A stretch of 64,000 nucleotides of DNA, from positions 2,438 through 66,437 of the forward strand of contig DEMS01000032.1 in the NCBI GenBank assembly GCA_002359315.1, in the 5' to 3' direction. The stretch comes from Bacteroidetes bacterium UBA2664. GTDB lineage: Bacteria; Bacteroidota; Rhodothermia; Balneolales; Balneolaceae. Both the position numbers and the translations under genes were made by a program. The stretch's first letter is position 1, and each line of letters starts with the position of its first letter. Below, in pieces: positions 33,537-52,416 of the stretch. Under the pieces are notes generated by a model that worked only from the letters and a program-made list of their open reading frames with translations, was not told the DNA's origin and did not search any database.

Positions 33537-33539
33537 GCG

Positions 33540-36500
33540 ATGCCAGTAGTTAAAACAAATATCGACCAGATTACGCACCTGTCCACCGGCGACTTTGATC
33601 ACTGGCTGGGCGACTGGGACTCCGATGGAATCGTCAATATTGATGATCCCAACCCGCTTACTCCGGGCGATACTGCCCCTGTGTCTGAGGCCGAACTGGC
33701 CCCGCAGATCAAGGCGGTGATTGAGACGAAGAACAACTACATCCCAGCCCTGAAGAAAGTCATGAAAGGCCTAATCGGGATGAATTTGGCGCTGGTCGTC
33801 AAGGGTCGCATTAAAGAAGTGTATTCCACTTTAGGGAAACTTATTCGCAAGCGGTTTCCGTTTACGGAAAAGATTGCCACCAAGTCTGGAGAAAAATACA
33901 CAACCGGCCTGACCGATGTGGCAGGCTGTATGGCGATTGCCGAAACGCAGGCGCAGGTGGATCAGATTGTGGAGCGTATCCAGTCGGGCGAGCTGGGTGA
34001 GGTGTGGGAACACGAAGACAAATATAAACATCCTGCAAACGGCTACCGCGCCCATCATTTTATCCTCGTAGTGGACAAGCTGTACCCGGTCGAAATCCAG
34101 GTAAAAACCAAACGGATGTCCATGATCTCGGCGGCCTCACACCAGCCCTATAAAGTGGGCCAGCTTAACGGAGCGCTGCTGGAAGAATTGACCCAGCTCG
34201 CGTGGAAAGCTGACAAGGGCGACACCGAATCGACAGAAAAATTGGAGCCGTACTTAGCAGATCTGGACGCTCTTGAAACTCAGCTTACTCTTCGATCTAA
34301 TCCAAGTGGAGAACTTCAGCAACTTCAGGCAGATTTTGAGCAGACCATAGGCAAACTGGCACTGGCGTTTCAGCTGGATAAGTTTCCAGCTGAGTACAAG
34401 CAGGAAGCCCTGGAGCTTTTCAGGGCACACGGGCGCATCATCGGCGTCGATTTTGATGGGGTATTTAAACAAGCCTCTACCAAAGAATCTAAGCCGATCA
34501 AGGAGCCCAAAAAGAAATCAGGCCAATCAATTTTTAGGTTTAGTGACACCGAATTGTCGGAATTTGCGCCCATCAAACTAACGGCCTCCGAGCGTCGCAA
34601 GGCCAACGAAGCGGCTATCGCCGTACTTCAAAAGGAAGACCGCGCGATTACCAAATCCGATATTGAAGTACTTCGTACGTACACCGGGGCGGGTGGTTTA
34701 GGATACACCGAATCCACCGAACATTCCAAGCGGGGTTTGTTGAATGAGCACTACACGTCCTACCCCGTGGTCAAACTCATCTGGGACAAACTTCAACAGA
34801 TGGGTGTTACGGGCGGCAATATTTTAGAGCCAGGTTCCGGCGTGGGTAACTTTGCCGGATTCCTTCCCGACCGCGAGAAATTCCGCATGGTCATGATCGA
34901 ACGCTCGGCCATTAGCTCCCGCATAGCACGTCTTTTGTACCCGATGCAGACCGTGCGCCACGAGAACTTTGCGGGCACCGATCTATCCCTGTATAACCTG
35001 ACCGGCGTGGTTGGAAACGTGCCCTTTGGGGACCTGAAAATTCATACCTCCCGCGACCCGCTGGCCCCGCTTAGCCCACGCATTCACGACTATTTTATTC
35101 TGAAATCACTGGACGCATTGAAGCCCGGTGGTTTCTTGGCCGTAATTACCTCAACCGGCACGATGGACAAAAAAGACCCGTCCATTCGGCAGGCTATGAT
35201 ACAACGTGCCCGCTTTGTCGGGGCCTACCGGTTGCCTTCAACGGCGTTTAAAGACAACGCCGATACCACGGTAACCACCGATATTCTGTTTTTCCAGAAG
35301 TATGGGGAGCACCAGGGAGCAATCCATCCGGATGTGGACTCCAAGCTCAACCGACTTTTTGCACAGGAAGATCTGATTGAAAGTCAGGTATCCTATAATG
35401 GTGAAACCTATACCGCTTTTTACAATCCCTTCTTCAAAGAGCATCCCGAGCATGTGTTAGGCGAACATATTCAGGGGCACCATGTACAGTTTTATTCCCG
35501 CATGGGCGTTAAAGGCGAGCTTTCCGAAGGCCTCATTCAAAGGGTGCTTTCTGACGGACTAACTTTTCCTTACGCGCTTCCGGGCAAGATGCCATTGTAC
35601 AACATACCCGATGACGGGATTATGCTCGACCTTCCAAGATCATACCATCCGGGGAATATCGTTTTCCACGAGAACCATTTTTACGAGAAACAGCGACGGT
35701 TTTTCAAGCGGCTTACGCTCAAAGGCGGCTCGGGGCTGGAGACCCGCATCGGCTCGGCTTGCCAGCTACTCGATAAATACGACGACTATATTACCGCACT
35801 GGCACAGGAAACCAGCGAAAAGGACGCCCTCCGCGCTGAGTTCAAGCAGTTGCTTGCGGGTCACATAAAGCAGTATGGTATTCCCGATGAAGACGAGGAC
35901 ATCCGCAAGGTGTTCAAGTTCGACAACCGGCTCTACAAGCTCACAACGCTCGTGAAGCGAGATCCGCTTAACGAGGAACTCGTGTATGCGGACATCATCG
36001 ACGCCGATTCCATGTTCAACCGAAACTACGTGCCTGCGGTCAAAGACTCCGATGATCTGGCTGAGCTGGCCATGTTCGGGCGCAGTATTGGTGAGACCTT
36101 AGATATTGACTTCTACCAGTCGGTGTACAAAGGGGGAACGGCGAGCAAAGAGGATCTGGAAAAAGCATTGGAAGATCACCCTGACTTTTACTGGAATCCG
36201 GCCACCGGAAACCACGAATTTCGCTACCAGTACCTGTCTGGTAACGTGCGCGAGAAACTGCAACTGGCCCAGGAGCACGAGCTGGAAAAGAATATTAAGG
36301 CACTCGGGGAAGTCGTGCCCGAATGGATCGACGTGTATAACATCACCGTGGACCCGCAGCACGTGTTCACCTATTTGCCCGCCAAAGCCATTGAAGAGTG
36401 GATTAAAGATGAAATGAATTACGATAAGGTGGAAATCGGCCTGGTCAAAGACAAAGCCGATCTGGGTAACCGGTTCTACATGAAGCTTCGAAAATGGGGC

Positions 36501-39500
36501 CGGTACATTTCTACGGGCGATGAGACCCCCGACGACGACAACCTCGGCTGGGGCGAGACGCCGTTTACGAAAATCATTACCTCTTACATTCAGGACAGCA
36601 CGTTTCCACTGAAGTTCTATGATGAGGACGATACCCTGATGCCGTCGATGACGCTCAAAGAGGCGCAATCCATGAAGGGCGAACGGGGCCAAATGCTCAT
36701 CGAGCGAGCGCGAAAAATACAGCGCCAAAACAACAACCGGATGCTCACGCACGTGCCCAAAAAGTTCAACAACTGGGTGCGCACCAAAGCTTCGTCCGAA
36801 GTCCGGAGCCTGATCGAATCCGCCTACAACCAGACCTATAACGCCGTAATCAACCCGCCCTTTGACGGGCGCACCCTTCGCGTTCGCGGCATGAGCGATA
36901 CCTTCTACGGGGTGAAAGACTTTACCGTGTACAAGCACAATCGCGCTATTGCCGAAAAGTTGGTCTGGAACGGTAAGGGTGCCAACTGCCACGATGTGGG
37001 GGCAGGGAAAACACTCGCTTCCATTATCACCTCCCAAGTGCTGCTCCAGCAGGGAGCCGCCCGAAAACCCATGTTTGTCGTGCCTGGAAAAGTGCAGGAA
37101 AAATGGGTGGAAGAATACCTGATGCTCTTTCCTGACGCCAAAGTCCTCAACATGAAAATGGCCTCTGGCGACAAGCACAAAGAACTTACGATGGCCCAGC
37201 TCTACAACTGGGACGCTATCTTTATCGCTGACCACGCTTTTAAATCGCTTCCGCTATCCCCAGCCGAACAGGCTCGTATTTTTCAAGAGCGCATCGACTA
37301 CTTCAACCAGATGTTGGAGAATTTCGAGGATCTGCTTGAGGAAGACGAGGCGATCTCGAAAGCGGTCAAGACCTCCATGATGAAACGCATGGAAAAGCAG
37401 ATGGAAGAATGGGAAACCAAACTCCGCAATGTGGCCCATGCCAAACGACTCGAAACCGATATTTTCTTTGACGAGCTGGGCGTGGACTGCCTGTTCTTTG
37501 ACGAGGCGCATTTCTACAAAAACGCCCTTGGTTCAGCCAAAGCCGCCAAGCTGGGAATCTCGGCAAACAAGCCTTCCCAGCGCGCCGAAGACGCCCTGCA
37601 AAAAACACGGTGGCTGTTCAGCAAAGTGGGCCATAAAAACGTGTTTGTCCTTACAGCGACTCCGGTAGTCAACTCTCCGGTGGAGGTATGGCACATGCTC
37701 AACCTGTGCGCCCCGGATTTGCTGACCAAATACGAAATTGAAAACCTCGACAACTTCATCAACCTGTTTGTCCGGGAAGAAGAAAAGATCGTCAAAAAGA
37801 CCAACGGGGAATACCGCTCCGAGCGCGTCGTGGCCGGGTACTACAACCTGCCGGAAATGCGTAAGATCATTGACGAGGTGATGGACATCAAGAGCTACGA
37901 TCAGCTCATCGGGTTTTACAAAGAGTTTCCCGATTACATTCAGGATGAATCCGGAAATACGATTAAAGGAAAAGACGGAAAGCCCAAGGTGCTCGAACCC
38001 AAATTCAAGCGCCCCAAGGCCAGCACCCGCAACGTGATTATTGAACCCAGCGAGCTGCATAAGCTTCTTTTTGATGACATTATCCTCCGAGCCAACGAGG
38101 TCATTGCCTGTATGAAAGACCGGCAGTGTGAGACCCGCGACAACTTCCTGGTAATTACCGGCGATGGTAGTAAGATTGCCACCGATCTGCGGGTGTACGA
38201 CAAAGATTTTGAAGGTATTGATCGCTCATACCTCAAGCTTGGAGCGATGGTGGAAAACGTGGCAGCTTCCTATGGTGCCCGTTCCAATCCGGCTCCCGAA
38301 ATGGTGCCCGAAGACCTATACGGCGACTACTTTCACCGGCCTGGCAGAGGACAATTGGCCGTCACTCCTCCGCACTTGCGAGAGAATCCTTCTCATATTG
38401 AAGTCATCACCAGCAAGGGCGTGGTAAAAGAAAAAAGTGGCTACTGGGTGGTGTGGGATGAAAAGAAAGAGGTTTATGAGCCCTTGCATATACTGGAGCC
38501 CAAAAAGGCCGAACACACGTGGAGCGAAGGCATCTTTGGCAACGAAAAAGAAGCTACCGAGCGCGCTAAAAAGCTAAACGCGGAGTGGGAGCAGATCAAA
38601 GCCAGTCGATCCAATCCAACCAGCCCAGCCATTCGCAACCAGATTATTTTCTGCGACTGGATCAGTCTTCATCAGTCACAGGGAGGTAGCTTCCATCAAC
38701 TCATCAAATCCGAGCTGGTCAAAGCTGGAATCCCCAAAGAACAGATTGCGATCATCAACGGGTCCATCATTGGCACGAGCAAAAACGGGGATGATTATTC
38801 CGTCAGTAGCAAAGACGATAAGGAAGCATTAAAGAAAGAAGTGCAGGATGATTTTAACCAGGGCAAGTACCGCGTGGTGATTGGTAACCAGTCGATTGCC
38901 GAGGGGATGAACCTTCAGAAGTGGACCACCGACATGCACCATATGGATGTGCCCTACACACCTTCGCAAATCCAGCAGCGCAATGGGCGCGGGCTTCGTC
39001 AAGGCAATCAGTACTCAGAAGTACAAATCCATTACTACCTGATGCAGGACTCTTTTGATCAGTACCGGCTGGAACTCGTCTCCAAGAAACAGAGCTGGAT
39101 TGATGACCTCTTCTTTGGCACCGGGCGTGAAGTCTCCACCGGTGGCGACTCGGAGTCGCTGGAATACGAGCAAATGGTTGCTGCTACCAACTCCGATCCA
39201 CGTGTAAAACAATTCTTTGAGGCTTTAGCGCAAAAGAATGTGCTCGACGACCGGATTGATAACCTTGAATCCGAGGTTCAGCGACTCCAGGCCAGCCAAG
39301 TGCAGGCAACTACTGATATCCAGGGAAAACAGGATCGCATGAAAAGCGTGGTAGAGCGCGAAACCGCCCTGCAAAACTCGAAGCTTCCCGATAACGCTGA
39401 AATCGCACTAAAGGAGAACCTGTTTGAGGCGCAGTACGGGTGGAACGGCGAGCCGTACCAACTCGATATCCAGTTGAGCTCCGACGCAAAACGCATCTCC

Positions 39501-40769
39501 GGCTACCGCATGAAAACCGTGCTCGATGTGCCCGATAACAACGCCAACGGGCGGGTGTGGTTTCACCTGATCCCAGACAGCAATATCCCTGACCGCTCGT
39601 TCTACAACAAACAGACGTGGGGTTCCATCAAACGCATGGCCTCCAAAGAGCTGGCCACCACCTTTGGGTGGACGCTGGAAGAAAAGACGGGGCAAGGAAA
39701 ATCCATCTCCGGCAACCTGGGCAACATCATTGCCACTGAGGAAGATTTTTACAATGAATACGGCATCGACATTGAAGTCGAGAAAGCTAAAAAAGACGAG
39801 GCCGGAAACGAGCAAAGCTTCAAGGCCATCAAAGAGTCCGCCGGGATGTTTACCATCAAAAAGTGGCAGCCGATTATCACCCGAAAACTGGCGGAGCTGT
39901 TTCTGGAACTCGAAAAAGCATGGATCAGAACTTCGGAATCACGAATGGAAATTCTAAGCAGTGAGCTGAAGCAAACTGAGAAAACACTGGCCGAACTTCA
40001 AAAGGTGCTGGCGTCCACAAAGGGCGAACTGGAAGCGGCCAAAACCGCTCGGGAGAACAACCAGAAGACCGTGATCGAACTCAACGATGTGGTCAACCAG
40101 CTGGTGGCGGTGAGCTACGACGACCGGAACGAACTGTATGAAGAGATCAACCGGATCGCCCCGAAATACAAGATCCGCAAGACCATTACCGTCCGTGATG
40201 TTGGGGCGCTGAAAGGCAATACCCCCAAAGGCGCGCCCCAGCTTCGTGAGAACAAAGCCCACAATATGCCTGGAAAAACATCCAAACGGCATGGCGTACT
40301 AAAAACCCTCTACGAAGAACCGCTGGTGTATTCCGGCATCGTCAAGGAACTGGAGTACATCGACGCCAAAGGCTACATGCAGCGCATGGAAGCTGAAAAG
40401 GATGATCTGGCAATGATCATTAACGCCAAGGGCACCACTATTTATGTGTTTCCAACAAACTTAATGAGGCTCTCAAAGGGAGCCTACAATGACCCGAAAG
40501 CCGCCGAAATGTTTGAGGAGTTTCATCATTTCCCGGCAGACGACTACGACTATGAGCTGTTTCCGCCTGCGGGCGAGAAACTGATCAGTGCCGGTTACGC
40601 CGACCGCATTATGTACGTGAGCGATAAGATTATCTACGCCGATGACGAAAAAGGCAAGGACAATCACTATTTCCACTACTTCGATGCGGGCAAGCGACCG
40701 GTGTTTAAATACGGTGATGTGTACATCATCGCTAACGTCAACATAGACGGCAGGGGCATTCTTAATTGA
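33540..40769 (+). CDS. 2409-aa multidomain protein: RelA/SpoT-like synthetase, N6-adenine methyltransferase and SNF2 helicase (DarB-like)
   Basis: GRIK, DVAG, GYRAHH, EIQVKT; LEPGSGVG, GNVPF; HDVGAGKT, DEAH.YKN, TATP, EGMNLQ, QRNGRG.RQG. Confidence 0.88.
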   Translation: MPVVKTNIDQITHLSTGDFDHWLGDWDSDGIVNIDDPNPLTPGDTAPVSEAELAPQIKAVIETKNNYIPALKKVMKGLIGMNLALVVKGRIKEVYSTLGKLIRKRFPFTEKIATKSGEKYTTGLTDVAGCMAIAETQAQVDQIVERIQSGELGEVWEHEDKYKHPANGYRAHHFILVVDKLYPVEIQVKTKRMSMISAASHQPYKVGQLNGALLEELTQLAWKADKGDTESTEKLEPYLADLDALETQLTLRSNPSGELQQLQADFEQTIGKLALAFQLDKFPAEYKQEALELFRAHGRIIGVDFDGVFKQASTKESKPIKEPKKKSGQSIFRFSDTELSEFAPIKLTASERRKANEAAIAVLQKEDRAITKSDIEVLRTYTGAGGLGYTESTEHSKRGLLNEHYTSYPVVKLIWDKLQQMGVTGGNILEPGSGVGNFAGFLPDREKFRMVMIERSAISSRIARLLYPMQTVRHENFAGTDLSLYNLTGVVGNVPFGDLKIHTSRDPLAPLSPRIHDYFILKSLDALKPGGFLAVITSTGTMDKKDPSIRQAMIQRARFVGAYRLPSTAFKDNADTTVTTDILFFQKYGEHQGAIHPDVDSKLNRLFAQEDLIESQVSYNGETYTAFYNPFFKEHPEHVLGEHIQGHHVQFYSRMGVKGELSEGLIQRVLSDGLTFPYALPGKMPLYNIPDDGIMLDLPRSYHPGNIVFHENHFYEKQRRFFKRLTLKGGSGLETRIGSACQLLDKYDDYITALAQETSEKDALRAEFKQLLAGHIKQYGIPDEDEDIRKVFKFDNRLYKLTTLVKRDPLNEELVYADIIDADSMFNRNYVPAVKDSDDLAELAMFGRSIGETLDIDFYQSVYKGGTASKEDLEKALEDHPDFYWNPATGNHEFRYQYLSGNVREKLQLAQEHELEKNIKALGEVVPEWIDVYNITVDPQHVFTYLPAKAIEEWIKDEMNYDKVEIGLVKDKADLGNRFYMKLRKWGRYISTGDETPDDDNLGWGETPFTKIITSYIQDSTFPLKFYDEDDTLMPSMTLKEAQSMKGERGQMLIERARKIQRQNNNRMLTHVPKKFNNWVRTKASSEVRSLIESAYNQTYNAVINPPFDGRTLRVRGMSDTFYGVKDFTVYKHNRAIAEKLVWNGKGANCHDVGAGKTLASIITSQVLLQQGAARKPMFVVPGKVQEKWVEEYLMLFPDAKVLNMKMASGDKHKELTMAQLYNWDAIFIADHAFKSLPLSPAEQARIFQERIDYFNQMLENFEDLLEEDEAISKAVKTSMMKRMEKQMEEWETKLRNVAHAKRLETDIFFDELGVDCLFFDEAHFYKNALGSAKAAKLGISANKPSQRAEDALQKTRWLFSKVGHKNVFVLTATPVVNSPVEVWHMLNLCAPDLLTKYEIENLDNFINLFVREEEKIVKKTNGEYRSERVVAGYYNLPEMRKIIDEVMDIKSYDQLIGFYKEFPDYIQDESGNTIKGKDGKPKVLEPKFKRPKASTRNVIIEPSELHKLLFDDIILRANEVIACMKDRQCETRDNFLVITGDGSKIATDLRVYDKDFEGIDRSYLKLGAMVENVAASYGARSNPAPEMVPEDLYGDYFHRPGRGQLAVTPPHLRENPSHIEVITSKGVVKEKSGYWVVWDEKKEVYEPLHILEPKKAEHTWSEGIFGNEKEATERAKKLNAEWEQIKASRSNPTSPAIRNQIIFCDWISLHQSQGGSFHQLIKSELVKAGIPKEQIAIINGSIIGTSKNGDDYSVSSKDDKEALKKEVQDDFNQGKYRVVIGNQSIAEGMNLQKWTTDMHHMDVPYTPSQIQQRNGRGLRQGNQYSEVQIHYYLMQDSFDQYRLELVSKKQSWIDDLFFGTGREVSTGGDSESLEYEQMVAATNSDPRVKQFFEALAQKNVLDDRIDNLESEVQRLQASQVQATTDIQGKQDRMKSVVERETALQNSKLPDNAEIALKENLFEAQYGWNGEPYQLDIQLSSDAKRISGYRMKTVLDVPDNNANGRVWFHLIPDSNIPDRSFYNKQTWGSIKRMASKELATTFGWTLEEKTGQGKSISGNLGNIIATEEDFYNEYGIDIEVEKAKKDEAGNEQSFKAIKESAGMFTIKKWQPIITRKLAELFLELEKAWIRTSESRMEILSSELKQTEKTLAELQKVLASTKGELEAAKTARENNQKTVIELNDVVNQLVAVSYDDRNELYEEINRIAPKYKIRKTITVRDVGALKGNTPKGAPQLRENKAHNMPGKTSKRHGVLKTLYEEPLVYSGIVKELEYIDAKGYMQRMEAEKDDLAMIINAKGTTIYVFPTNLMRLSKGAYNDPKAAEMFEEFHHFPADDYDYELFPPAGEKLISAGYADRIMYVSDKIIYADDEKGKDNHYFHYFDAGKRPVFKYGDVYIIANVNIDGRGILN

Positions 40770-40797
40770 ACCACCCGCCAGAACAACGAAGGCACCT

Positions 40798-41301
40798 ATG
40801 AAAGAACGCGTGTTCGCCAAGAACCCTTCCGAGCTACAAATCATCGAAAACCCAAACAAACGACGCAGTAACATGGCAAAACAAAGCAAAATCACTACCG
40901 AGAAGGCGGTCTCTGAATTCAAGCAGCAGGCTATCACCGCCGGATACATTCTTGGTGGGCAGGCTGTAGCAGCGCAGGTTAATGCCCTGGCCGTCCCCAT
41001 GCTGACAGGCAACGCATCTGCTACCATTCAACAAGCAACACGAGCGGGTATTCCACTTACCGCCGGTGTGCTCCTAACCCTTGTGACCAAGAACAAACAT
41101 CTTCGCGGTCTGGCAATGGGTATGGGCGTGCAAGGCGTAATGGAAGCCATCAAATTTATCATGCCCGACTGGACGCCCCAGCAAGGCCTGATGGATGGTT
41201 CCGGGTACGTGTATGACGGGGTCCCTCAGATTCCGGAAACCACCCATCATGTAGATGATGTGGAAACTTCAATGGAAGTGAGTAACACCATCGAAGTATA
41301 A
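40798..41301 (+). CDS. Membrane protein preceding the putative capsid genes
   Basis: Basic N-terminus with KNP/ENP, Gly/Ala-rich hydrophobic helices, GLMDGSGY. Confidence 0.65.
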   Translation: MKERVFAKNPSELQIIENPNKRRSNMAKQSKITTEKAVSEFKQQAITAGYILGGQAVAAQVNALAVPMLTGNASATIQQATRAGIPLTAGVLLTLVTKNKHLRGLAMGMGVQGVMEAIKFIMPDWTPQQGLMDGSGYVYDGVPQIPETTHHVDDVETSMEVSNTIEV

Positions 41302-41391
41302 AAATATCGACTCATAGCTCTGATTGCAGAGGGGGTACTGGTAATACCGAAACGGCTAACAGCCAACTTCTAAACCCTTAAAAACACAGTT

Positions 41392-42003
41392 ATGAGCAAC
41401 AAAATTAGCAAAAAGGCTTTAGTGCCTGCAACCGCACGCATCAAGACCTACTACGACACCAAGCAGGTCGTACAGAACGACAATGTTATCAACTTTTTCC
41501 CGGCCAATGCCACCCGTAAAGTCACCCGTGACAACTACGTGAACAACCCGTTTCCGGGTTCCATGAAGCGCCGAATTTTAGGCTTGTCCTTTGAACTCAC
41601 CAAGCAGTTCATCGAAGACGACGCGGCCAACGGCATCGACGCGCGAGCCATTGTGAACGGCCTCAAAGATGCGGCCATCTTACTTCAGGCCGACAACGAC
41701 AACAAGGAATTCCTCCGCGCCCCAATGAGTGAATTCTCCAATTTTGCTGGCACCGGTATCCAGCTTGCTTCGGCAACGGACAATACCGTGGACGCCGTGG
41801 CTTCTTTCAAGAGAGTAGCCACCATCAAGAGCGCGGGTGAATACCGCTTGGCCGATCCGTTTGATCTGGCTGTAAACCAGACGGTTTCCCTTGCCGTGCA
41901 CTTTGACGACGCTTCGGTTTTCCCTTCGATTGAAAACTGGACGCAATCAGGTCAAGGACAACTTTGGCTCCGGGCTTCTCTGGTAGTCGCAGAAGTTGAG
42001 TAA
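41392..42003 (+). CDS. Putative single jelly-roll major capsid protein
   Basis: Beta-strand pattern YYDT..NFF..N..P..ILGLSF...PFDLAVNQTVSLAVHF...LRASLV; followed by terminator; fold inferred only. Confidence 0.5.
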   Translation: MSNKISKKALVPATARIKTYYDTKQVVQNDNVINFFPANATRKVTRDNYVNNPFPGSMKRRILGLSFELTKQFIEDDAANGIDARAIVNGLKDAAILLQADNDNKEFLRAPMSEFSNFAGTGIQLASATDNTVDAVASFKRVATIKSAGEYRLADPFDLAVNQTVSLAVHFDDASVFPSIENWTQSGQGQLWLRASLVVAEVE

Positions 42004-42012
42004 TCCATCCCG

Positions 42013-42055
42013 TCCCGCCGGTTTCGGTTCGCCGGTTCCGGCGGGATTCTTTTTT
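42013..42055 (+). terminator. Intrinsic terminator after the putative capsid gene
   Basis: TCCCGCCGG...CCGGCGGGA followed by TTCTTTTTT. Confidence 0.75.
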
Positions 42056-42087
42056 CCAATCAACCCTGACTACCTCAAAGCAACGCC

Positions 42088-42864
42088 ATGAAGATTATCT
42101 CCAATTTTTTACCTCCTAAAGAAAGTTCGGCCTACAATCCGGCCAAGTCGGTTGAGGTGCAACCGGGAGCAACGGCTCACCTTACCATGAACGGCATGGG
42201 TGGAGAGCGCTACGGCATCCGAAAGATCCTCCCGTTCAGCGCCAACATGAATGCCATTTTGATCTCGGCCCGCCTGAATGAAGACCTCTACCTGTTTCGC
42301 GATGTGCAGCTATCGGTGGTGCACAACCTGTTCAAATCCATTGACGGGCTTTTTGCGCCCTTCATCATTCAGAAGAACAACCACATCGTTTTTGAACTCA
42401 CCAATACCGGTGCCGCTAAACAGACCGTCAACATTCAGCTTGTCGGTTATGACCAGTTTGCCCTATCTAAACTCAGCGCGGCCTACCAGCAAATTGGAGC
42501 TTCGGTTCCCGTACCCCGGTTTCTGTATGGACATAGCACGGTTCCGGCAAGCGGGCTCAACATTGATCTGGGCGTGAAAAGCAAAAGCGTGGACGTGCAG
42601 GTTCGGCGCATGGCCATGAGCAGCAACCAGCCCGGAACAATTACCGCCTCGATGAAAGTGTACAACACCACGGTTCGCGATGAAGTATTCCTGGAGCAGG
42701 TGAACGATGAGTTCAACGACAAGTACATCAATGTGCCTTTTGTGGTGGGATCGAACGTTCCCTTTGATGTGTACGCTTCCAACTACGGTGCCCAGCCTGC
42801 AGAGGTAAGTTTCCTCTGCGAAAGCTACGTGCAGGCAAAAACCGGATTCATCCCAGCGGAGTAA
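42088..42864 (+). CDS. Putative double jelly-roll-like capsid protein (internal duplication)
   Basis: Two halves end PFIIQKNNHIVFELTN..TVNIQLVGY and PFVVGSNVPFDVYASN..EVSFLCESY. Confidence 0.5.
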   Translation: MKIISNFLPPKESSAYNPAKSVEVQPGATAHLTMNGMGGERYGIRKILPFSANMNAILISARLNEDLYLFRDVQLSVVHNLFKSIDGLFAPFIIQKNNHIVFELTNTGAAKQTVNIQLVGYDQFALSKLSAAYQQIGASVPVPRFLYGHSTVPASGLNIDLGVKSKSVDVQVRRMAMSSNQPGTITASMKVYNTTVRDEVFLEQVNDEFNDKYINVPFVVGSNVPFDVYASNYGAQPAEVSFLCESYVQAKTGFIPAE

Positions 42865-42866
42865 TC

Positions 42867-43280
42867 ATGCTAAACGATCTGATTAAAGTACTCTGCGAGC
42901 TGGCGGCCAACGTGGAAGCATTGGTTAAAAACCTGCAAAAAACTGAAGGCAGCCAGCCCAGTCAGGCCCGGATTGCCTCCTCCATATCCCCGGTGATGAA
43001 ACATGGCGAGCAGCCTGTTCGCCTGGTCAACGAAAACCCGCATCGTTTGGGAGTTATTATTCAAAACAACAGCGAAGGCGAGCTTATGATTGCCCTGGAC
43101 AGCCAGCGGATCTCCGACAAGTACTACACCTTCAAACTGCGAGCGGGTGAAACCCTGCACTTTGACCTACGCCGGTTTGGTGAGCTCTACAAAGGCGGTT
43201 TTATGGGTCTGTGGGATGAGGCGACCAATCCCGGAGCCGAGTCCAAAGCCCTGGTAACCGAAATCTTTTGGACAAGCTAA
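42867..43280 (+). CDS. Putative vertex/penton-like beta protein
   Basis: N-terminal helix then LVNENPHRLGVIIQNNS..LMI...L.AGETL. Confidence 0.45.
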   Translation: MLNDLIKVLCELAANVEALVKNLQKTEGSQPSQARIASSISPVMKHGEQPVRLVNENPHRLGVIIQNNSEGELMIALDSQRISDKYYTFKLRAGETLHFDLRRFGELYKGGFMGLWDEATNPGAESKALVTEIFWTS

Positions 43281-43281
43281 G

Positions 43282-43860
43282 ATGAGCAAGATTAGCGGGC
43301 AGGAATTTGGTCTAAACGAGGTCTTCAAGATGCGGGTGGTCAGCGGAATGCTTGTGGACGGCTCCATTCTGATTTCATGGGCCACCGGGGAACCGGCATC
43401 GAGCCAAATTGACTGGGGCTGGGACGATTCGGTTCCGTTTCAAACTCCGGAAGTACACATCGAGCCGGAGGAGATGGTACGATACCACCAACTCTACCTG
43501 CCTCAAACTCTGGTCGATCAGCGGCATTATTTCCGCGTGCGCTCGCGAACCGAGCACGGAAAATCGGGAATCTCGGACATCTACATGGTGGTCGTTCCTC
43601 CGGATCTGGCCATTAAAAACCGTGGGCGAATGGCCACTGAGATTGAATTGGAACTTGTGCTGGTCAAAACCACCCGCATCGACTGCACGAACTTTCCGGC
43701 TACTTTTTTGTCGGGCTACCGCACCGAACCCATTTCCTCCGATCAGCCTGCCTTGATTGAACATGAAAACACAGAGCCTGCTGCCTTGGATAAAGTCGCC
43801 ACAGTGAATCCGGATACGAACAGCTCGCTGTCCACCAGAATCACCTATACCATTACATAA
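43282..43860 (+). CDS. Fibronectin type III-like domain protein
   Basis: ISWATGEPASSQIDWG...H.L.L..........YFRVRS...G. Confidence 0.65.
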   Translation: MSKISGQEFGLNEVFKMRVVSGMLVDGSILISWATGEPASSQIDWGWDDSVPFQTPEVHIEPEEMVRYHQLYLPQTLVDQRHYFRVRSRTEHGKSGISDIYMVVVPPDLAIKNRGRMATEIELELVLVKTTRIDCTNFPATFLSGYRTEPISSDQPALIEHENTEPAALDKVATVNPDTNSSLSTRITYTIT

Positions 43861-43886
43861 ACCCATATTTGAATAATTAATACTCC

Positions 43887-45290
43887 ATGAAAACCATCAC
43901 AACGGATTTAAACGTCGGAAGAACAGCAAGCGGTCTCGATATGTACTGCGACCTGTCCCTGGAACAGCGGCACCTGTATCGCATGAAATGCGAGAGCTTT
44001 GTTGGAAATCTGCTCAAATGGATGCGCATCCAAATGGGCAAAACCAATCAGGATGAGTACTGGGATGGCTATAACACCCGAAAAAATATCACCAATATTA
44101 TTAGCATCGTCGAGTCCGGTGATGATCTCATCGTTGAAGTGGCAGACTACCACGAATACAACACCGTAGAGCACGACCTGATTACCATTCAGGGCGTCAT
44201 TGGTCTGGAGGGATTAAACGGGGTGTATTACCACGACAACACCAAAGGACAATTTCCGCTTGACCGCCATAGCCGCTACAAGTATTACATTCGCGGTATT
44301 GTGCCACATCTGACCGGGGTGTGGGATGGAAATTCAGGGGTTTCGATTGCGGCCAAATACCGAAACCAGTGGGCGTCCAATGACTATCACTTGCCCCTGA
44401 ACTGGAACCCCATTATCGGGATGAGTGATCAGGTCGTAAAGGCCTCAGATTTGTGCCTGCCGGGGTATTTCAAGCGGGGGTGCACGCAAGGGGCTGTGTC
44501 CATTACCTCTCTTATCACCGACCAGGAAAGCTCCAAGTTTACCCTTTCCCGACCCTTTACGAATATGTCGGGCGCTATCCGGGATATCAAGGAAATTGGG
44601 ATCATGTCTGGGGATTACCGCAGCGCCTATATGCTCATGGCACGAGACGTGCTGGGGGCACCTATTAGCCTTGGAGACACGTCCACCTTGTCGCTGGATT
44701 ACGAAATCATTTCCATGATCGAAAACTTCAATCAGGACACCGATGCTGGCGGCACTAACGGCGGGTGGACAGAGAACTTTATGTACATCCTGCACCGGAT
44801 TGCCAACCCAAGCGCCCAGTACAACTGGGAAAACGAGTTCCACTTTACCGCCGGATTAGGTGGCGGAGGCACCGGCGTAAACTTCAGCTATGACCGCAAT
44901 TTGAACGGCTGGCAATTTGGCGTTCGTATAGGCGAATCCAACAAGTTTGTTTCCATGACTGACCAATCACTGACTCCGGAAAATGCAGAAGTGAACGGTG
45001 TTCCACATGGCTATGGAGACGGTGAACTCGTACATCACGGCACGCATATCGGCGAGCTTGTCGTTGATGACGTAGCCAATGAAGTCTATTTCCCAGTTGA
45101 ACGCATCTTTGAAAATCGGGGTACTACTCCTCTCACAATTCGCGAAATAGGTCTGTTTGGTAACAAAAATAATTCAAATCAGATCTCACCACATCTTCTC
45201 GCACGAAAAGCCTTGGCCCCAGTCGATCAGTTTACTATTGGAGCGGGTGAAACAGCCAAGGTAACTTTCAACTGCAAGGCGATTGTATAA
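43887..45290 (+). CDS. Putative spike/receptor-binding protein with duplicated domain
   Basis: SRPFTN.SG..DIKEIGI..LMARDVL and ERIFEN.G..TIREIGL..LLARKAL repeats. Confidence 0.5.
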   Translation: MKTITTDLNVGRTASGLDMYCDLSLEQRHLYRMKCESFVGNLLKWMRIQMGKTNQDEYWDGYNTRKNITNIISIVESGDDLIVEVADYHEYNTVEHDLITIQGVIGLEGLNGVYYHDNTKGQFPLDRHSRYKYYIRGIVPHLTGVWDGNSGVSIAAKYRNQWASNDYHLPLNWNPIIGMSDQVVKASDLCLPGYFKRGCTQGAVSITSLITDQESSKFTLSRPFTNMSGAIRDIKEIGIMSGDYRSAYMLMARDVLGAPISLGDTSTLSLDYEIISMIENFNQDTDAGGTNGGWTENFMYILHRIANPSAQYNWENEFHFTAGLGGGGTGVNFSYDRNLNGWQFGVRIGESNKFVSMTDQSLTPENAEVNGVPHGYGDGELVHHGTHIGELVVDDVANEVYFPVERIFENRGTTPLTIREIGLFGNKNNSNQISPHLLARKALAPVDQFTIGAGETAKVTFNCKAIV

Positions 45291-45845
45291 GTGAGTAGCG
45301 CCCTGTCCATATCCTCCCAGCTCAGCTACCTTCGGGTGAAGGGCATTATGGGGCACTTCTATGAGGCTTCTCGGGCAAATAATGTGCCGGTTTCCCTGCT
45401 TTTGGCCATCGCCTCCAGGGAAAGTCATATGGGATTGGCGTTGGACAGCAACTGGACGGGCGACAACGGAAACGGCATCGGCATCATGCAAATTGACCGC
45501 CGGTATCACTCGGACTTTACGAGCTCCCATGCCAACAGCGACCACCGCGCCAATATCCACTATGGCAGCAAGTTTCTGGCAGACCTGATCAGAAAGTTTG
45601 GAGGTAAGTTTACCCCAGCTGTGGCCGCATACAATGCCGGATACACTAAAGTTAGGAATACCATCAGTGCTGGCATTGATCCCAATCTGGTTACCACCGG
45701 GCAAAATTACGCCACCGATGTGCTCCGCCGAAAAGAAATCGTGGAATCGGTTATGGGTATTTCCAAAGCGTCCACGGCCAGCATGGTAATTCTGCCACTA
45801 ATCATCACAGGATTTATTTCCTACCAAATCTTTAACACTCAATAA
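45291..45845 (+). CDS. Lytic transglycosylase (SLT/goose-lysozyme-like) with C-terminal TM
   Basis: AIASRES, GIMQID, AAYNAG, NYA.DV. Confidence 0.88.
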   Translation: MSSALSISSQLSYLRVKGIMGHFYEASRANNVPVSLLLAIASRESHMGLALDSNWTGDNGNGIGIMQIDRRYHSDFTSSHANSDHRANIHYGSKFLADLIRKFGGKFTPAVAAYNAGYTKVRNTISAGIDPNLVTTGQNYATDVLRRKEIVESVMGISKASTASMVILPLIITGFISYQIFNTQ

Positions 45846-45851
45846 ACAAAT

Positions 45852-46238
45852 ATGAAATCATCTTCCGGATATATCTACAGCGAGGAAAGCTCCCCCGGTT
45901 TGGGGCGCATGATGCTCGACCCGACGCTACCCACCGAGTTGAATACGGCTATCCAACCGGTCTCTTCAATCGGTACAATTCGACCAACCATACCCATTTC
46001 TCGGGGGCTTTCTCCCAGAATCAGGAAACCGGTTCTGCCAAGGTTGCCCAAGATCAAACCACCCAAAGTGACTCCGGTGGTACGAGATTTGGCCAAAAAA
46101 CCAACAGCAGCTGTCCAACCCGCAACAACTAAAAGCGAGCCGGTGGCCACCCAGAAAAAACCGATGAACAAGAAGATGATCGCACTTGCCGGGGCCGGTA
46201 TTGTTGGAGCCGGAATCCTCTTTAAAATCTTACGCTAA
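45852..46238 (+). CDS. Pro/Lys-rich tail-anchored protein
   Basis: SSGYIY...PGLG; C-terminal TM. Confidence 0.65.
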   Translation: MKSSSGYIYSEESSPGLGRMMLDPTLPTELNTAIQPVSSIGTIRPTIPISRGLSPRIRKPVLPRLPKIKPPKVTPVVRDLAKKPTAAVQPATTKSEPVATQKKPMNKKMIALAGAGIVGAGILFKILR

Positions 46239-46254
46239 CCTAACCTGAAAACCC

Positions 46255-46488
46255 ATGAGTAAATCAAGCTATACCTCTGATAACGGCCTTGGATGTGGCT
46301 GCGGATGCAACGGAGCCGGAATCGGTTCTTCCCCCGTCGTGGACGTTAAAAACGCCGAAGCCGAAAACACCAAAATGGACTTGGTGGATACGGCCAAAAA
46401 GTACATCAATGGCGACGTGCCGATGAAGTACAAAGCCGCTGCCATTGCCCTCGGTGCTGGCTTTTTGTGGCTAAAGTTCAAGAAATAG
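46255..46488 (+). CDS. Small tail-anchored protein with CGCGC
   Basis: SSY..NGLGCGCGC; C-terminal TM plus KFKK. Confidence 0.65.
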   Translation: MSKSSYTSDNGLGCGCGCNGAGIGSSPVVDVKNAEAENTKMDLVDTAKKYINGDVPMKYKAAAIALGAGFLWLKFKK

Positions 46489-46492
46489 TCCT

Positions 46493-47068
46493 ATGAAACG
46501 AGCCGACTACATTGCCCTTATAGAAAGCTATGGGGGCAATTTTTCCTTGTCTGACTTTGAAATCCAGGGGAACATCTCCCAAATGGATATGGATTTTTTG
46601 CGGTCATTTTTAGCTTGGAGAGATTGGACGGGAACCAAAACCCTGATCACGTCTGCTTGGCGAGAAGGTGACGCGAAATCCCACGGCAAAGGTCTGGCCA
46701 TTGACTGTCTTTTGTTTACCGAATGGCTTGCCAAACAGGCAAGTCCGCTTCAGCACTGGCTGTTTGCAACCACCTGGCCTTTTCAAGGAGTGGGGCTGTA
46801 TTTCGACTGGAATTTTACTCATAAGATAAGTGGGGAAAAGTTGCCCGCTATTGGTCTTCATGTGGACGGGTGGAGTGGCAAGCAGATCAACGAGCGGCCA
46901 CTGCGCTGGCTCCGGATTGATGGCCATTACTACTACCAATCGACGAAAACCGGACGGTTTTACTGCCGGGAAAACAAACAAACCATAACGCTTCCAGAAG
47001 CCATTCAGGACTACGAGCAACGCTATGAGCAAATCACCAAAGCCCGAGCATTACCTCAGCAAGTATAA
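46493..47068 (+). CDS. Peptidase M15-like endolysin
   Basis: ITSAWR, H-x6-D (HGKGLAID), GLHVD zinc motifs. Confidence 0.72.
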   Translation: MKRADYIALIESYGGNFSLSDFEIQGNISQMDMDFLRSFLAWRDWTGTKTLITSAWREGDAKSHGKGLAIDCLLFTEWLAKQASPLQHWLFATTWPFQGVGLYFDWNFTHKISGEKLPAIGLHVDGWSGKQINERPLRWLRIDGHYYYQSTKTGRFYCRENKQTITLPEAIQDYEQRYEQITKARALPQQV

Positions 47069-47312
47069 AGAGCTGATCATTACGACCATTATTTGCCTGT
47101 TTTTGACTGGCATTTACGACTCGATAAACAACCAGACCGCTGAAATCAAACGGTGGTATGAGCTGATGATCAACATCCGGGCCGAGCAGAAGATTCAGGG
47201 CGTTGACCTGGAATCATTGAAGCAGTCCATCGAGACCTACCAAAGTAAAACCGACCAGGAACTAACCAATCACGAACAACGCATTCAGTCCCTTGAACGA
47301 GGGAGTGAATAA
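47025..47312 (+). CDS. Single-TM coiled-coil protein (holin-like)
   Basis: N-terminal TM, HEQRIQSLE end; adjacent to endolysin. Confidence 0.5.
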   Translation: MSKSPKPEHYLSKYKELIITTIICLFLTGIYDSINNQTAEIKRWYELMINIRAEQKIQGVDLESLKQSIETYQSKTDQELTNHEQRIQSLERGSE

Positions 47313-47343
47313 GCTTTATTAACCTAATTTAGCCTAATTACCC

Positions 47344-47643
47344 ATGAAAAAACTACTTAGAAACGTCATCAAATCCGTACCAACACTTATCACATTATTC
47401 AGAAAAGAAACTCCGCAGGAAGGAAAAGACATTGCCAAAAGTGGGCTTACAAGTTTGGGAATATCCGGTTTGATTACAACCGGACGAATTAATGCCGGGG
47501 AATTGGATGAGACAGTACTGATTATCCTGGCAATCGTTGAAGCAATTGGATATGTGTATGGAGTGATTGCACTGTTAGTAGGTAGATCTCAAGTTAATTC
47601 AGAAGTAAGTTTTGAAAAACATTTCACTGGGAAGGCAGAATAA
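47344..47643 (+). CDS. Small membrane protein (holin-like)
   Basis: One to two TM segments; last gene of the late operon. Confidence 0.45.
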   Translation: MKKLLRNVIKSVPTLITLFRKETPQEGKDIAKSGLTSLGISGLITTGRINAGELDETVLIILAIVEAIGYVYGVIALLVGRSQVNSEVSFEKHFTGKAE

Positions 47644-47742: not shown

Positions 47743-48123
47743 ATGAGCAAACAATCCTGTATTCGTGATGTAGCCGATCTGAACCAGATCAACCGCTGTA
47801 TTGATTCTATCCATGCGGTAGAATCATCCATCTTAAAACTCTCGGACATACTGAAACTGGCCGGGAATGATGTGCGCCTGAAAATTCTGTTCTTGTTGAG
47901 CACGGAGAAAGATTTATGCCCGTGCGATTTGAGCGATATTTTAGATATGACCGTACCGGCGGTATCACAACACCTGCGAAAATTGAAAGACGCCGGACTT
48001 TTAGATTCAAGAAGAGAGGGAAAGCTCATTTTCTATTCCCTGCAAAAACCTTATGACGATCTTTTGAAACCACTTTTCAACCAAATTGAAAACAATACCA
48101 TTATGGAGGTATTAGCCGCATGA
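47743..48123 (+). CDS. ArsR/SmtB family metal-responsive repressor
   Basis: RLKIL, LCPCDL, AVSQHLRKLK. Confidence 0.92.
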   Translation: MSKQSCIRDVADLNQINRCIDSIHAVESSILKLSDILKLAGNDVRLKILFLLSTEKDLCPCDLSDILDMTVPAVSQHLRKLKDAGLLDSRREGKLIFYSLQKPYDDLLKPLFNQIENNTIMEVLAA

Positions 48124-48746
48124 ACAAGCAACAGAAAAATAATTCTGATACCAAATGGCTGGGTGCGGGACTCGGAGTTGCATTTATCGCCTCCCTTTGC
48201 TGCATCACTCCGGTGCTGGCTATTCTGGCAGGCACAAGTGGTATCGCCTCTACGTTTTCATTCATGGACCCATTTCGACCTTATTTAATTGGGTTGACTG
48301 TTCTTTTACTTGGGTTTGCATGGTACCAAAAACTGAAGCCCTCAAAAGAGATCGACTGTGAATGTGATCCTGAAGAAGCCCGTTTCACCCAGTCTAAATC
48401 GTTTCTTGGCATCGTAACCGTAGTGGCGGCACTTTTGTTGGCTTTTCCAAACTACTCTCATTGGTTTTTCTCTGACGCTCAACCCACTCAAGTACAATAT
48501 GTTTCCGAGGCAGATGTAGAACATGTAACCTTTAATGTGGAGGGCATGACCTGCGCTGGGTGTGAAGCCAGTGTAAAAAATGAGTTGGGTAAACTGGATG
48601 GAATTGTTGAGTCCGAGGTATCCTACGACAGCGGAACGGCTACTATTTCGTATTTGAAAACGAAGCTCACGGAAAAAGAACTTCAGGATGCGATCAATAA
48701 GACCGGATTTACAGCCAACCTTCAACAAGAGCAAGAAAACGAATAA
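48120..48746 (+). CDS. merTP: MerT-MerP(HMA) fusion mercury transporter
   Basis: SLCCITP in TM1, CEC loop, GMTCAGC HMA domain. Confidence 0.85.
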   Translation: MNKQQKNNSDTKWLGAGLGVAFIASLCCITPVLAILAGTSGIASTFSFMDPFRPYLIGLTVLLLGFAWYQKLKPSKEIDCECDPEEARFTQSKSFLGIVTVVAALLLAFPNYSHWFFSDAQPTQVQYVSEADVEHVTFNVEGMTCAGCEASVKNELGKLDGIVESEVSYDSGTATISYLKTKLTEKELQDAINKTGFTANLQQEQENE

Positions 48747-48750
48747 TAGG

Positions 48751-50388
48751 ATGAAAGAACTGGAACTGGACATAGCGGGCATGACGTGTGATCATTGCGC
48801 CGTGTCTATTGAAAATAATCTATCCAAACTAAACGGAATACAGAAGGCGGATGTAAGCTACCCCAACGGAACGGCTACGGTATCATTTGATGAATCCACC
48901 CTTGATAAAGCTTCAGTGATTGAAGCCGTAAATGAGACGGGTAAGTATCAGGTAGTTGGCGAAACCGGAAAAGAGCAGTCTGGTGAACACCGTTACTCGT
49001 TGATTATTATCGGGGGCGGTTCGGCTGCTTTTGCTGCGGCTATCCGAACCAGTGAATTGGGAGGAACCGCACTGATTATCAATAAAGGTCTGCCAACCGG
49101 TGGAACCTGTGTAAATGTGGGGTGCGTGCCTTCCAAAACACTGATCCGAACAGCAGAAGCCTTTCACAATGCTTCCCATCCGAGATTTGAAGGGATTGAA
49201 ACCACGGCAACCATTAGTGATTTCAAAAAAGTGATTGAGCAAAAACGGGAGATGGTTCGTGATCTTCGCCAGGAAAAATATGTGAATGTGATAAAGGATG
49301 ATCCAAGCATCACCCTTATTGAGGGGTACGGAAAGTTAATTCAAACAAATCAGGTTCAGGTAAATAATTCAACCTATACCGCCGAAAACATTTTGATTGC
49401 CACAGGAGCTTCCCCGTTTATTCCTGAAATACCAGGACTGAAAGGAGCGGGATATCTGACCAATGAGTCGGCCTATGAACTTGAGGAACTTCCGGAAGAG
49501 CTCGTCATACTTGGCGGCGGATATATTGCTCTTGAAAATGCTCAACTCTTTAGTCGGCTTGGAAGCAAGGTGACTGTATTACAGCGATCAGAACATGTAT
49601 TAAGTGATCAACCCAAAGAGCTTGCAACAGCCTTAACGGGATATTTGGAAGAGGAAGGATTAACCATTTTGACGAATACAGACATTCTGGAAGTAACGAA
49701 AACAGATAAAAATAGAAGCATCCGTTTTACGGTAAATGGAGAGGAAAAAAAACTTGAAGCTGATCAGATATTGGTCGCTACCGGCAGGCAGGGAAATACA
49801 GGGAACCTGAATCTTGAATCCGCAGGGATTGACACCGAAGGTCGCGGCTATATTCCAGTGGATGAAACCATGCGAACCAATACATCCAACATCTTTGCCG
49901 CCGGCGATGTACTTGGCGAACGGCAGTTTGTATATACGGCTGCTTATGAAGGAAAAATCGCTGCTGAAAATGCGATGAGAGATAGTCATGGAAAAGCCGA
50001 TTTTTCAGTCTTACCATGGGTTATTTTCACTGATCCACAGGTGGCCGGAGTGGGTATGGACGAACAGCAAGCGGAAGAAGCGGGACTTAACTATCAAGCA
50101 ACTAAACTTACGCTGGATAATGTACCCCGATCCATTGCTGCGAGAGATACACGTGGTTTTATCAAGTTAATCCGAAACAAAGATAATGACCACTTGATTG
50201 GAGCTCGCATTTTGGCACCGGAGGGCTCGGAACTATTGATGGAACTGGCTCTGGCTATGAGGCATGGGGTAACCATTCAGTCGCTCAAGTCAGAATTTCA
50301 TCCCTATCTGACCCTTTCTGAAGGAATTAAACTTGCGGCTCTCACTTTCGACAAAGACGTGAAGAAATTGAGCTGCTGTGCGGTTTAA
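48751..50388 (+). CDS. merA: Mercuric reductase
   Basis: GMTCDHC N-terminal HMA, GGTCVNVGCVPSK, C-terminal CCAV; start placed at MKELEL. Confidence 0.95.
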   Translation: MKELELDIAGMTCDHCAVSIENNLSKLNGIQKADVSYPNGTATVSFDESTLDKASVIEAVNETGKYQVVGETGKEQSGEHRYSLIIIGGGSAAFAAAIRTSELGGTALIINKGLPTGGTCVNVGCVPSKTLIRTAEAFHNASHPRFEGIETTATISDFKKVIEQKREMVRDLRQEKYVNVIKDDPSITLIEGYGKLIQTNQVQVNNSTYTAENILIATGASPFIPEIPGLKGAGYLTNESAYELEELPEELVILGGGYIALENAQLFSRLGSKVTVLQRSEHVLSDQPKELATALTGYLEEEGLTILTNTDILEVTKTDKNRSIRFTVNGEEKKLEADQILVATGRQGNTGNLNLESAGIDTEGRGYIPVDETMRTNTSNIFAAGDVLGERQFVYTAAYEGKIAAENAMRDSHGKADFSVLPWVIFTDPQVAGVGMDEQQAEEAGLNYQATKLTLDNVPRSIAARDTRGFIKLIRNKDNDHLIGARILAPEGSELLMELALAMRHGVTIQSLKSEFHPYLTLSEGIKLAALTFDKDVKKLSCCAV

Positions 50389-50407
50389 AAGAGTATCAAT
50401 AACCGTT

Positions 50408-51286
50408 TCACTCAATCAAAGATGAAGTTCCCTCATCCAGCTCCACTTCAATCGTGCTGTGGCTGAAGTTGTAAGGTTTAAGAATATCACGAATTTTCTT
50501 TTTGGCTTCCAGAATGTCTGAATAGCTTTCTACATTTTTAAGAATGAGGTGAGCAGTAAACACATGCTTTTCTCCATCCAGCGACCATAAGTGCAGGTGA
50601 TTGGTATCGGCCACTATATCTTGCTCGAGGAATTTTTCTCGCAGTTCATCAATGCTTATATCATCCGGAGTTCCCTGTAAGAAAATGTGTAGGGTTTCCT
50701 TCAATCGTTTTACCACATTCCAAAGTACATAGGCAGTAATAAAGAGAGACAGTGCAGGATCTAAATAATGAATGTCTTTGAAAAGTAATACAATAGACAC
50801 TACAAGAACGGCGGCCCAACCCAATACATCTTCCAACAGGTGCCAGGAAATAACTCGTTCATTAAGGGTTTTGCCATGACTCACCTTCCATGCAGCGTAC
50901 CCATTCACTGCCACCCCCACGATGGCAAAAAGAAGCATTCCCTGAGCATCGGTATGTTCCGGCGATAAAATTCTGGCAACCGCTTCATTGATCACAAAGA
51001 CAGATCCAGCGATCAGTACCAAGCTGTTAATCAAAGCACCAAGCAGCGAGAACCGGGTATAACCAAAGGTGAAGGATGAATTTGCTCCTTCTTTAGATTT
51101 ATGATCCAAAAACCAGGAGAGTCCTAAGGATAGACTATCTCCCAAATCGTGCAGGGCATCGGAGATAATGGCCACACTGTTTACATACATACCTCCAAAA
51201 AATTCAAGAATGGTGAATCCAAAATTGAGAAAAAAGGCGAGTTTGATGTTTCCATGCTCGTGTTCGTGTGAATGATCGTGTGACAT
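50408..51286 (-). CDS. Cation diffusion facilitator (CzcD-like)
   Basis: His-rich N-terminus, SDALHD, HLLED, HSTIE. Confidence 0.92.
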   Translation of the reverse strand: MSHDHSHEHEHGNIKLAFFLNFGFTILEFFGGMYVNSVAIISDALHDLGDSLSLGLSWFLDHKSKEGANSSFTFGYTRFSLLGALINSLVLIAGSVFVINEAVARILSPEHTDAQGMLLFAIVGVAVNGYAAWKVSHGKTLNERVISWHLLEDVLGWAAVLVVSIVLLFKDIHYLDPALSLFITAYVLWNVVKRLKETLHIFLQGTPDDISIDELREKFLEQDIVADTNHLHLWSLDGEKHVFTAHLILKNVESYSDILEAKKKIRDILKPYNFSHSTIEVELDEGTSSLIE

Positions 51287-51322
51287 GTTGGTTGGGGTTT
51301 ATTTTTTGTCAATAAGAATTTT

Positions 51323-52302: not shown

Positions 52303-52416
52303 ACTAATATACTCCGCTCATTTCCAGAAGTCCTGTCGTGAGAACGCCGAAATTGATCGAAAAGATAAAAGATGGTTTTTCATCGTCTTTTGTCGTTAAT
52401 TTAGTCTCATAATCTT

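Follow-up and report, generated by a model that had tools for sequence, protein, structure and literature searches.

SSIP-1 is described in reviews, as far as their accessible text goes, as an unclassified T=49 membrane-containing phage (PMC6260650, PMC6356626, PMC4958249, PMC5332951), and the same sources place it, without naming the genes there, among the single-barrel viruses with two major capsid proteins, one with a question mark. SPV1, another single-barrel virus, has the single jelly-roll major capsid protein VP4, which forms hexamers (PMC8459092). In the part of PMC8812541 available to us, single- and double-barrel capsids are held to have arisen separately, with the known viral double barrels being monophyletic, and separate capsid origins were the grounds on which the ICTV split Singelaviria from Varidnaviria in 2025, according to the accessible text of PMC12714852 and PMC8812541. 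Here we analyse a 64,000-nucleotide stretch of contig DEMS01000032.1 from the Balneolaceae bacterium UBA2664 (hereafter the window, in which all positions are counted), and we find that the four-gene cassette at 40798-43280 most likely forms the block of capsid genes in a tail-less, SSIP-1-like phage present as a provirus. The block has adjacent genes for a predicted single jelly roll and a predicted side-by-side double jelly roll.

The four open reading frames (ORFs) of the cassette, all on the forward strand, lie where an earlier note made from the letters of this DNA had put them. They encode proteins of 167 residues (40798-41301), 203 residues (41392-42003), 258 residues (42088-42864) and 137 residues (42867-43280). 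When 50,697 phage records were searched, only the two SSIP-1 records matched the 203- or the 258-residue protein. The former shares 27.6% identity with SSIP-1 gp45 (E 1e-13) and is also homologous to gp46, while the latter matches gp47 with E 1e-3 by BLAST and E 3e-19 by profile. The 167-residue protein is a homologue of gp44 (E 1e-9), and a profile of the 137-residue family built without gp48 nevertheless finds gp48 (E 1.3e-14). BLAST matches run collinearly through gp34, ORF35, ORF36, gp40, the C-terminus of gp43, gp44, gp45/46, gp47 and ORF54, nine SSIP-1 genes if gp45 and gp46 are counted as one position; gp46 is itself a row of our alignment A3, and the SSIP-1 matches from alignment A1 are independent of A3. 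The SSIP-1 record annotates gp44-gp48 as structural proteins. Kinship of the element with this known virus, which the earlier note left unrecognised, is on these comparisons near certain.

The element is a provirus bounded by two tRNA(CAT) copies. A perfect 69-bp repeat, the 3' part of the tRNA(CAT) gene, begins at 22146 and again at 63933, and a tyrosine integrase (62531-63706, reverse strand) lies beside the right copy; the element therefore measures about 41.7 kb, of which some 15 kb are heavy-metal genes. The left attachment repeat (22146-22214, reverse strand), whose 69 bases are identical to those of the copy at 63933, has an imperfect acceptor stem, and the right one (63933-64000, reverse strand) belongs to a tRNA(CAT) copy that extends 7 bases beyond the end of the window. 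The cassette sits in a co-oriented run of about 30 genes (22.9-47.6 kb), in the late part of which the guanine-plus-cytosine content is 50-52%, whereas the flanks have about 40%. Gracilimonas, Balneola, Rhodohalobacter and Fodinibius supply the named homologues, which points to a Balneolaceae host. None of the late genes scanned belongs to a tailed-phage head or packaging family.

The earlier note had proposed a single jelly roll accompanied by a double jelly roll, and the predicted structures, together with Foldseek and structural alignments, bear this out. The model of the 203-residue protein (125 sequences; predicted local distance difference test score, pLDDT, 90) shows a jelly roll to which a further hairpin and helices are added. 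Foldseek ranks the SPV1 capsid protein first (E 2.8e-3; Z 8.2, root-mean-square deviation, rmsd, 3.5 over 128 residues, 10% identity), and it aligns with the single jelly-roll capsid proteins of P23-77, SH1, HHIV-2 and HCIV-1 at Z 5.9-7.7, the highest value being that for chain b of HHIV-2. Searches of PDB sequences, Pfam and PHROGs gave no sequence link to the Helvetiavirae capsids, and more generally neither Pfam nor PHROGs held an informative family for any of the four cassette proteins, nor did PDB sequence searches return anything at E<0.1. The structural matches point to the predicted jelly-roll fold rather than to specific kinship.

The 258-residue protein was modelled (64 sequences; pLDDT 94, predicted template-modelling score 0.91) as a pair of barrels connected by a helix, with an FG helix in each. 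Full-length alignments were obtained with the major capsid proteins of STIV (Z 10.4 over 228 residues), PM2 (Z 8.3 over 207) and PRD1 (Z 8.0 over 229), and likewise with cellular enzymes of the DUF2961 type (Z 9.7-9.9) and PHM (Z 9.4-9.7) over 207-229 residues; the rmsd across these alignments to capsid proteins and enzymes was 4.6-6.3 A. Only one half could be aligned with the stacked protein VP17 (Z 6.2 over 106 residues), on which ground a VP17-like stacked protein was rejected. A closer match is an unlabelled viral model of 256 residues in BFVD (template-modelling score 0.87, rmsd 1.7, 20% identity), which by its length and identity is probably SSIP-1 gp47. Known double jelly-roll capsid families in Pfam match none of the 64 members, none of the 26 members tested hits a capsid-annotated PHROG, and a PDB sequence search found no match; an Atlas lead connects the family to P2_N/P2_C at only 0.78.

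That the 258-residue protein consists of two similar halves of about 120 residues, as the earlier note had it, is confirmed by profile comparison. HHalign aligns the halves with 96% probability (E 3.3e-9, 98 columns; reversed control 0.5%), and their secondary-structure elements line up when shifted by 124-129 residues, the short C' strand having been placed by hand, while pairwise BLAST detects no similarity between them (E 0.61). The duplication is visible in distant homologues too, including gp47. Compared with the 203-residue protein, the halves share only 21-23 columns at 4-7% probability. Their sole similarity to it is a conserved P-F-x-hydrophobic-x-x-N motif, found at residue 156 of the 203-residue protein and at residues 91 and 217 of the 258-residue protein, where residue 49 gives a fourth match (the expectation is about 0.02 per 461 residues, for a pattern chosen after the fact). 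The earlier note had listed this pattern as the ending of each module; it is indeed present in the 203-residue protein and in both halves, but its place is in the G-H strands, not at the module ends. A fusion of two genes of the 203-residue type was rejected: in the homologues tested, each half profile finds the opposite half (8 of 8 and 7 of 8), but single-barrel proteins are matched in only 0 of 4 and 1 of 4 cases (E 0.01). The double barrel would have arisen by duplication of a small barrel of about 115 residues, separately from the 203-residue protein. The suggestion that this capsid lies between the two-single-jelly-roll and the double-jelly-roll architectures consequently holds as a description of gene content and fails as an evolutionary intermediate, the halves being unlike the 203-residue protein. 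Because its halves share only the short motif with the 203-residue protein, the 258-residue protein is not shown to be a fusion intermediate.

Between the two barrel genes lies a terminator-like hairpin with a T-tract (42012-42056, forward strand), noticed already in the earlier note as a strong terminator and kept in position among relatives. The hairpin proper (42012-42047) has a folding energy of -26.6 kcal/mol (z -2.6), equalled by 4 of 200 shuffled sequences, and a generic terminator scan by itself did not exceed chance (10 sites against 9.8 expected). Among 40 one-copy cassettes, 35 have a hairpin of -15 kcal/mol or below followed by a T-tract 3' of the single-barrel gene, many of these loci being close kin; 3' of the double-barrel gene it stands in 0 of 44 cassettes, an imperfect control as the DNA there is coding. 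Where the single-barrel gene is doubled, the terminator follows the second copy in one close relative (L055), and in SSIP-1 a strong hairpin follows gp46. From its position, we infer that the hairpin would make the 167- and 203-residue proteins abundant and the 258- and 137-residue proteins scarce. RNA-labelled sequencing runs yielded only scattered contigs of relatives, too sparse to rank the cassette genes.

Within the class, 35 of 400 genomes contain a match to the single-barrel profile, and 28 of these matches lie among the 157 genomes of the family; the double-barrel profile matches 37 of 282 genomes of the order. When the whole phylum was sampled, 12 of 401 genomes matched, all inside the window's own order. 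Metagenomes supplied 92 cluster representatives. Gene order is kept down to about 25% identity. The single-barrel gene is present once in 40 cassettes and twice in 4, a count over 44 cassettes that omits L009 and L011 (contig ends), L054 (proteins equal to those of L053), repeated entries for loci already counted, and the very divergent L057 and L070, the former with one single-barrel gene and, after it, a weak homologue of the double-barrel gene. A tree built from 25 single-barrel proteins groups the pairs by lineage (support 87/56 for SSIP-1, 98/95 for G221, 94/92 for G241). One single-barrel gene is the usual state, and the two-gene state of SSIP-1 arose by repeated duplication. A single origin of all second copies was rejected (p-value of the approximately unbiased test 0.0056), although the long branches of gp46, L056 and L057 weaken this result. 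A recent tandem duplication was seen in the close relative L055 (6372-7710), with copies 62% identical, and several genomes (G281, G292, G304, G241, G221) hold more than one such element, G281 having four single-barrel matches. Mean identity is 36.0% for the single-barrel and 35.6% for the double-barrel protein, with correlated divergence (r 0.90 over 105 pairs). A better conservation of the single-barrel protein is ruled out, its identity being higher in only 50 of the 105 pairs.

Taken together, we consider it somewhat probable that hexamers of the 203-residue protein make up the bulk of the shell, and that the 258-residue protein forms six-barrel trimers at a minority of lattice positions, probably beside the vertices. 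In this model, a transcript would run through the genes for the 167- and 203-residue proteins and mostly stop at the hairpin, and read-through would supply the 258- and 137-residue proteins. The single-barrel protein, likely the major capsid protein, would form hexamers as SPV1 VP4 does, and alternating heterohexamers where its gene has been duplicated. In PM2, PRD1 and STIV, six-barrel trimers are built from side-by-side double barrels. We therefore place the 258-residue protein in the lattice, so that both barrel proteins would build it, with the double-barrel trimers taking few positions, most plausibly around the five-fold vertices. The 137-residue protein, whose family has the invariant residues R60, N67 and E132 and whose profile shows no similarity to the other barrels of the cassette, is a candidate penton or vertex protein. 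The 167-residue protein would link the shell to an internal membrane. It had been called a membrane protein in the earlier note, but its hydrophobicity is only moderate, with a best 19-residue hydropathy of 1.39, below the cut-off of 1.6; it is likely a membrane-associated virion protein.

Several observations weigh against this arrangement. The structural matches of the 203-residue protein are modest (Z 7.6-8.2, values that the tool regards as common), and unrelated jelly rolls score almost as high; those of the double barrel have an rmsd of 4.6-5.1 A, with cellular double jelly-roll enzymes scoring about equally (Z 9.4-9.9). Five of the 40 one-copy cassettes, as well as L052 and L053, lack a strong terminator by the filter used. 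Conservation is equal for the two barrel proteins, which would also fit the double-barrel protein being a main capsid protein. Finally, no relative was confirmed among viral contigs by three pattern scans, which need exact short motifs and are hence weak (the divergent alignment A3 offered no stretch usable for such a scan), so that these proviruses are only putative producers of particles.

In one alternative, the double jelly roll would serve as the actual major capsid protein, assembled as trimers as in PM2 and STIV, and the single jelly roll would be an abundant cement, decoration or turret accessory. The size and fold of the double jelly roll match the small double jelly-roll capsid proteins, and its gene is present once per element in 44 of 44 cassettes, while the single-barrel gene varies from one to two; the equal conservation just mentioned points the same way. 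However, the double-barrel gene lies downstream of the conserved terminator, no member of the family matches a known capsid family, and the reviews, in their accessible text, give SSIP-1 two single-barrel major capsid proteins, which fits gp45 and gp46. We therefore regard this alternative as unlikely. It seems equally unlikely that single and double barrels co-assemble in mixed capsomers across the whole lattice, in the manner of P23-77 and SH1 with a side-by-side large protein. The adjacency of the genes, the G-H strand motif common to both proteins and their correlated divergence would agree with mixed capsomers, yet shared ancestry by itself would be expected to produce correlated divergence, the terminator hints that the amounts are unequal, and neither size nor insertions are the same in the two kinds of barrel (203 residues versus about 115).

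A third possibility removes the 258-residue protein from the lattice altogether and makes it a vertex, turret or receptor-binding protein on a plain single jelly-roll shell like that of SPV1. Its gene heads the putative low-expression block, followed by that of the 137-residue protein and by variable downstream genes; carbohydrate-enzyme double jelly rolls match it as well as capsid proteins do; and vertex proteins with two jelly rolls are on record (PMC13552765, accessible text). However, the two-barrel pentons described in that text stack their barrels, whereas the present model aligns side by side, and the protein is conserved like a capsid protein, unlike the variable downstream genes, so that we hold this possibility to be improbable too. 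That the cassette is a cellular or cargo carbohydrate-binding module has next to no chance of being correct: the top Foldseek rows of the 258-residue model are cellular enzymes, but the homologues are annotated as virion proteins of the isolated phage SSIP-1 and the cassette stays within a conserved provirus gene order. We thus retain the shell of single-barrel hexamers with minority double-barrel trimers. Only tentatively, at slightly worse than even chances, do we propose the wider combination of such a hybrid shell in both SSIP-1 and a large Balneolaceae/Rhodothermia provirus family, a second independent viral origin of the double barrel by small-barrel duplication, and duplication of the single-barrel gene on at least three occasions.

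Upstream of the cassette, on the forward strand, the P-loop ATPase (32283-33536; gp40 homologue, E 2e-31) is the only ATPase found in the element. SSIP-1 gp40 was predicted to be a packaging ATPase, as stated in the accessible part of PMC4124505. The homologue here, with a conserved KNR motif, matches the RadA/Sms type best (TIGR00416, E 4e-13), its Pox_A32 match is below the cut-off (E 5.5e-4), and it is not clearly of the FtsK/A32 type; judged by these families, a packaging role is doubtful. Adjacent to it on the same strand (33540-40769) is a 2409-residue DarB-like polyvalent protein with a RelA/SpoT-type domain, a methyltransferase and an SNF2 helicase, and with a C-terminal domain common to gp43. 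DarB-like polyvalent proteins are familiar from tailed phages, and this one lies within a tail-less virion block. Relatives L014 and L058-L063 show a fusion of the RadA/Sms-like ATPase with the polyvalent protein, the middle of which varies (total length about 770 to 1,670 residues) while the C-terminal domain is kept. Across 32283-41301 a motif, R-[SE]-N-P, occurs once in the ATPase and four times in the polyvalent protein, with N-P twice at the start of the 167-residue protein. It recurs in SSIP-1 gp41 (twice), in gp43 and in 9 of 9 gp44-family homologues examined. The motif is a candidate cleavage site for a transglutaminase-fold protein or, alternatively, a virion-sorting tag. That transglutaminase-fold protein (28848-29861, forward strand; PF01841 above cut-off) has a C-terminal hydrophobic segment and is a homologue of gp34 (40% identity, E 2e-27). 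Many proteins of the element have such hydrophobic tails, and of the six small proteins that follow (29865-32281, forward strand), four have a hydrophobic stretch close to the C-terminus, two match ORF35 and ORF36, and the last has a peptidoglycan-binding domain.

At the left end, the early/replication block (22431-26710), conserved in related elements, contains a divergent 139-residue putative repressor, a DnaG-type zinc-ribbon protein (23631-24395) and a 771-residue protein that is likely a primase/helicase. Downstream of the cassette, the late genes (43282-47643, forward strand) encode 192- and 467-residue proteins of unknown function, small hydrophobic proteins, candidate lysis proteins and a lytic transglycosylase homologous to ORF54 (45291-45845, forward strand). 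Between the late genes and the integrase, inside the attachment repeats, lies the mercury and other heavy-metal resistance cargo (47743-62392: ArsR, MerTP, MerA, CDF transporters and a CusA/CzcA system), at a site where relatives hold different cargo. A second related element, with a repressor, two small genes and a zinc-ribbon gene, starts past the right tRNA copy (G000:C37, from the window-equivalent position 64224 onward) and is cut by the contig end, which suggests that proviruses stand in tandem at a single tRNA. Immediately to the left of the element, a gene pair at 19108-20497 presumably resembles an AbiEii/AbiEi-type toxin-antitoxin system.

With these proviruses the orphan SSIP-1 gains a family, in which both predicted folds stand in adjacent genes of one structural operon and which sits cleanly in neither realm. 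Within the full-text literature, which did not cover the primary SSIP-1 paper, subscription papers or supplements, we found no description of gp47 as a double jelly roll or of these proviruses. Since its double barrel does not derive from its single barrel by profile comparison, the cassette leaves the view of separate capsid origins standing, and a double jelly roll with recognisable half copies offers a direct look at how this fold may originate by duplication. The presence of one- and two-copy single-barrel genes among close relatives makes the proposed transition from homohexamer to heterohexamer testable; if true, these duplications would replay the step from one gene to two that has been proposed for the origin of Helvetiavirae.

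Compared with known systems, the element resembles SPV1 (Portogloboviridae) in having one single jelly-roll gene and in that the SPV1 capsid is the best structural match of the 203-residue model. SPV1, however, has an archaeal host and a genome of about 20 kb, against a bacterial host and 41.7 kb here, and its ICTV profile describes neither a double jelly-roll partner nor an ATPase. With Helvetiavirae and other Singelaviria (P23-77, SH1, HHIV-2, HCIV-1) it shares the predicted vertical single jelly-roll fold and, in 4 of 44 cassettes, tandem paralogues, but there is usually one single-barrel gene, the larger partner is side by side and not stacked like VP17, and the ATPase, where they have one of the FtsK-HerA packaging kind, matches RadA/Sms best. 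Like the Varidnaviria proteins of STIV, PM2, PRD1, FLiP and phiCjT23, the 258-residue protein is predicted to have two eight-stranded side-by-side barrels, both bearing an FG helix; in contrast to them, its halves are still recognisable copies, it has no profile link to their families, it is paired with a single-barrel capsid protein, and it is likely not the main capsid protein. The cellular double jelly rolls DUF2961/GH172, PHM and PNGase F share the predicted fold, but the 258-residue protein is shorter, provirus-encoded and without a Pfam match. The closest system remains SSIP-1, with a homologous and collinear structural block (gp34-gp48) and a similar size (43.8 kb). Differences lie in identities of 21-40%, other early genes, tRNA integration with heavy-metal cargo, the DarB-like polyvalent protein, and one single-barrel gene where SSIP-1 has the gp45 and gp46 pair, a variant of SSIP-1's own arrangement. 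The element would work like a vertical jelly-roll, membrane-containing virus; on present evidence it is not to be filed in Varidnaviria and belongs with SSIP-1.

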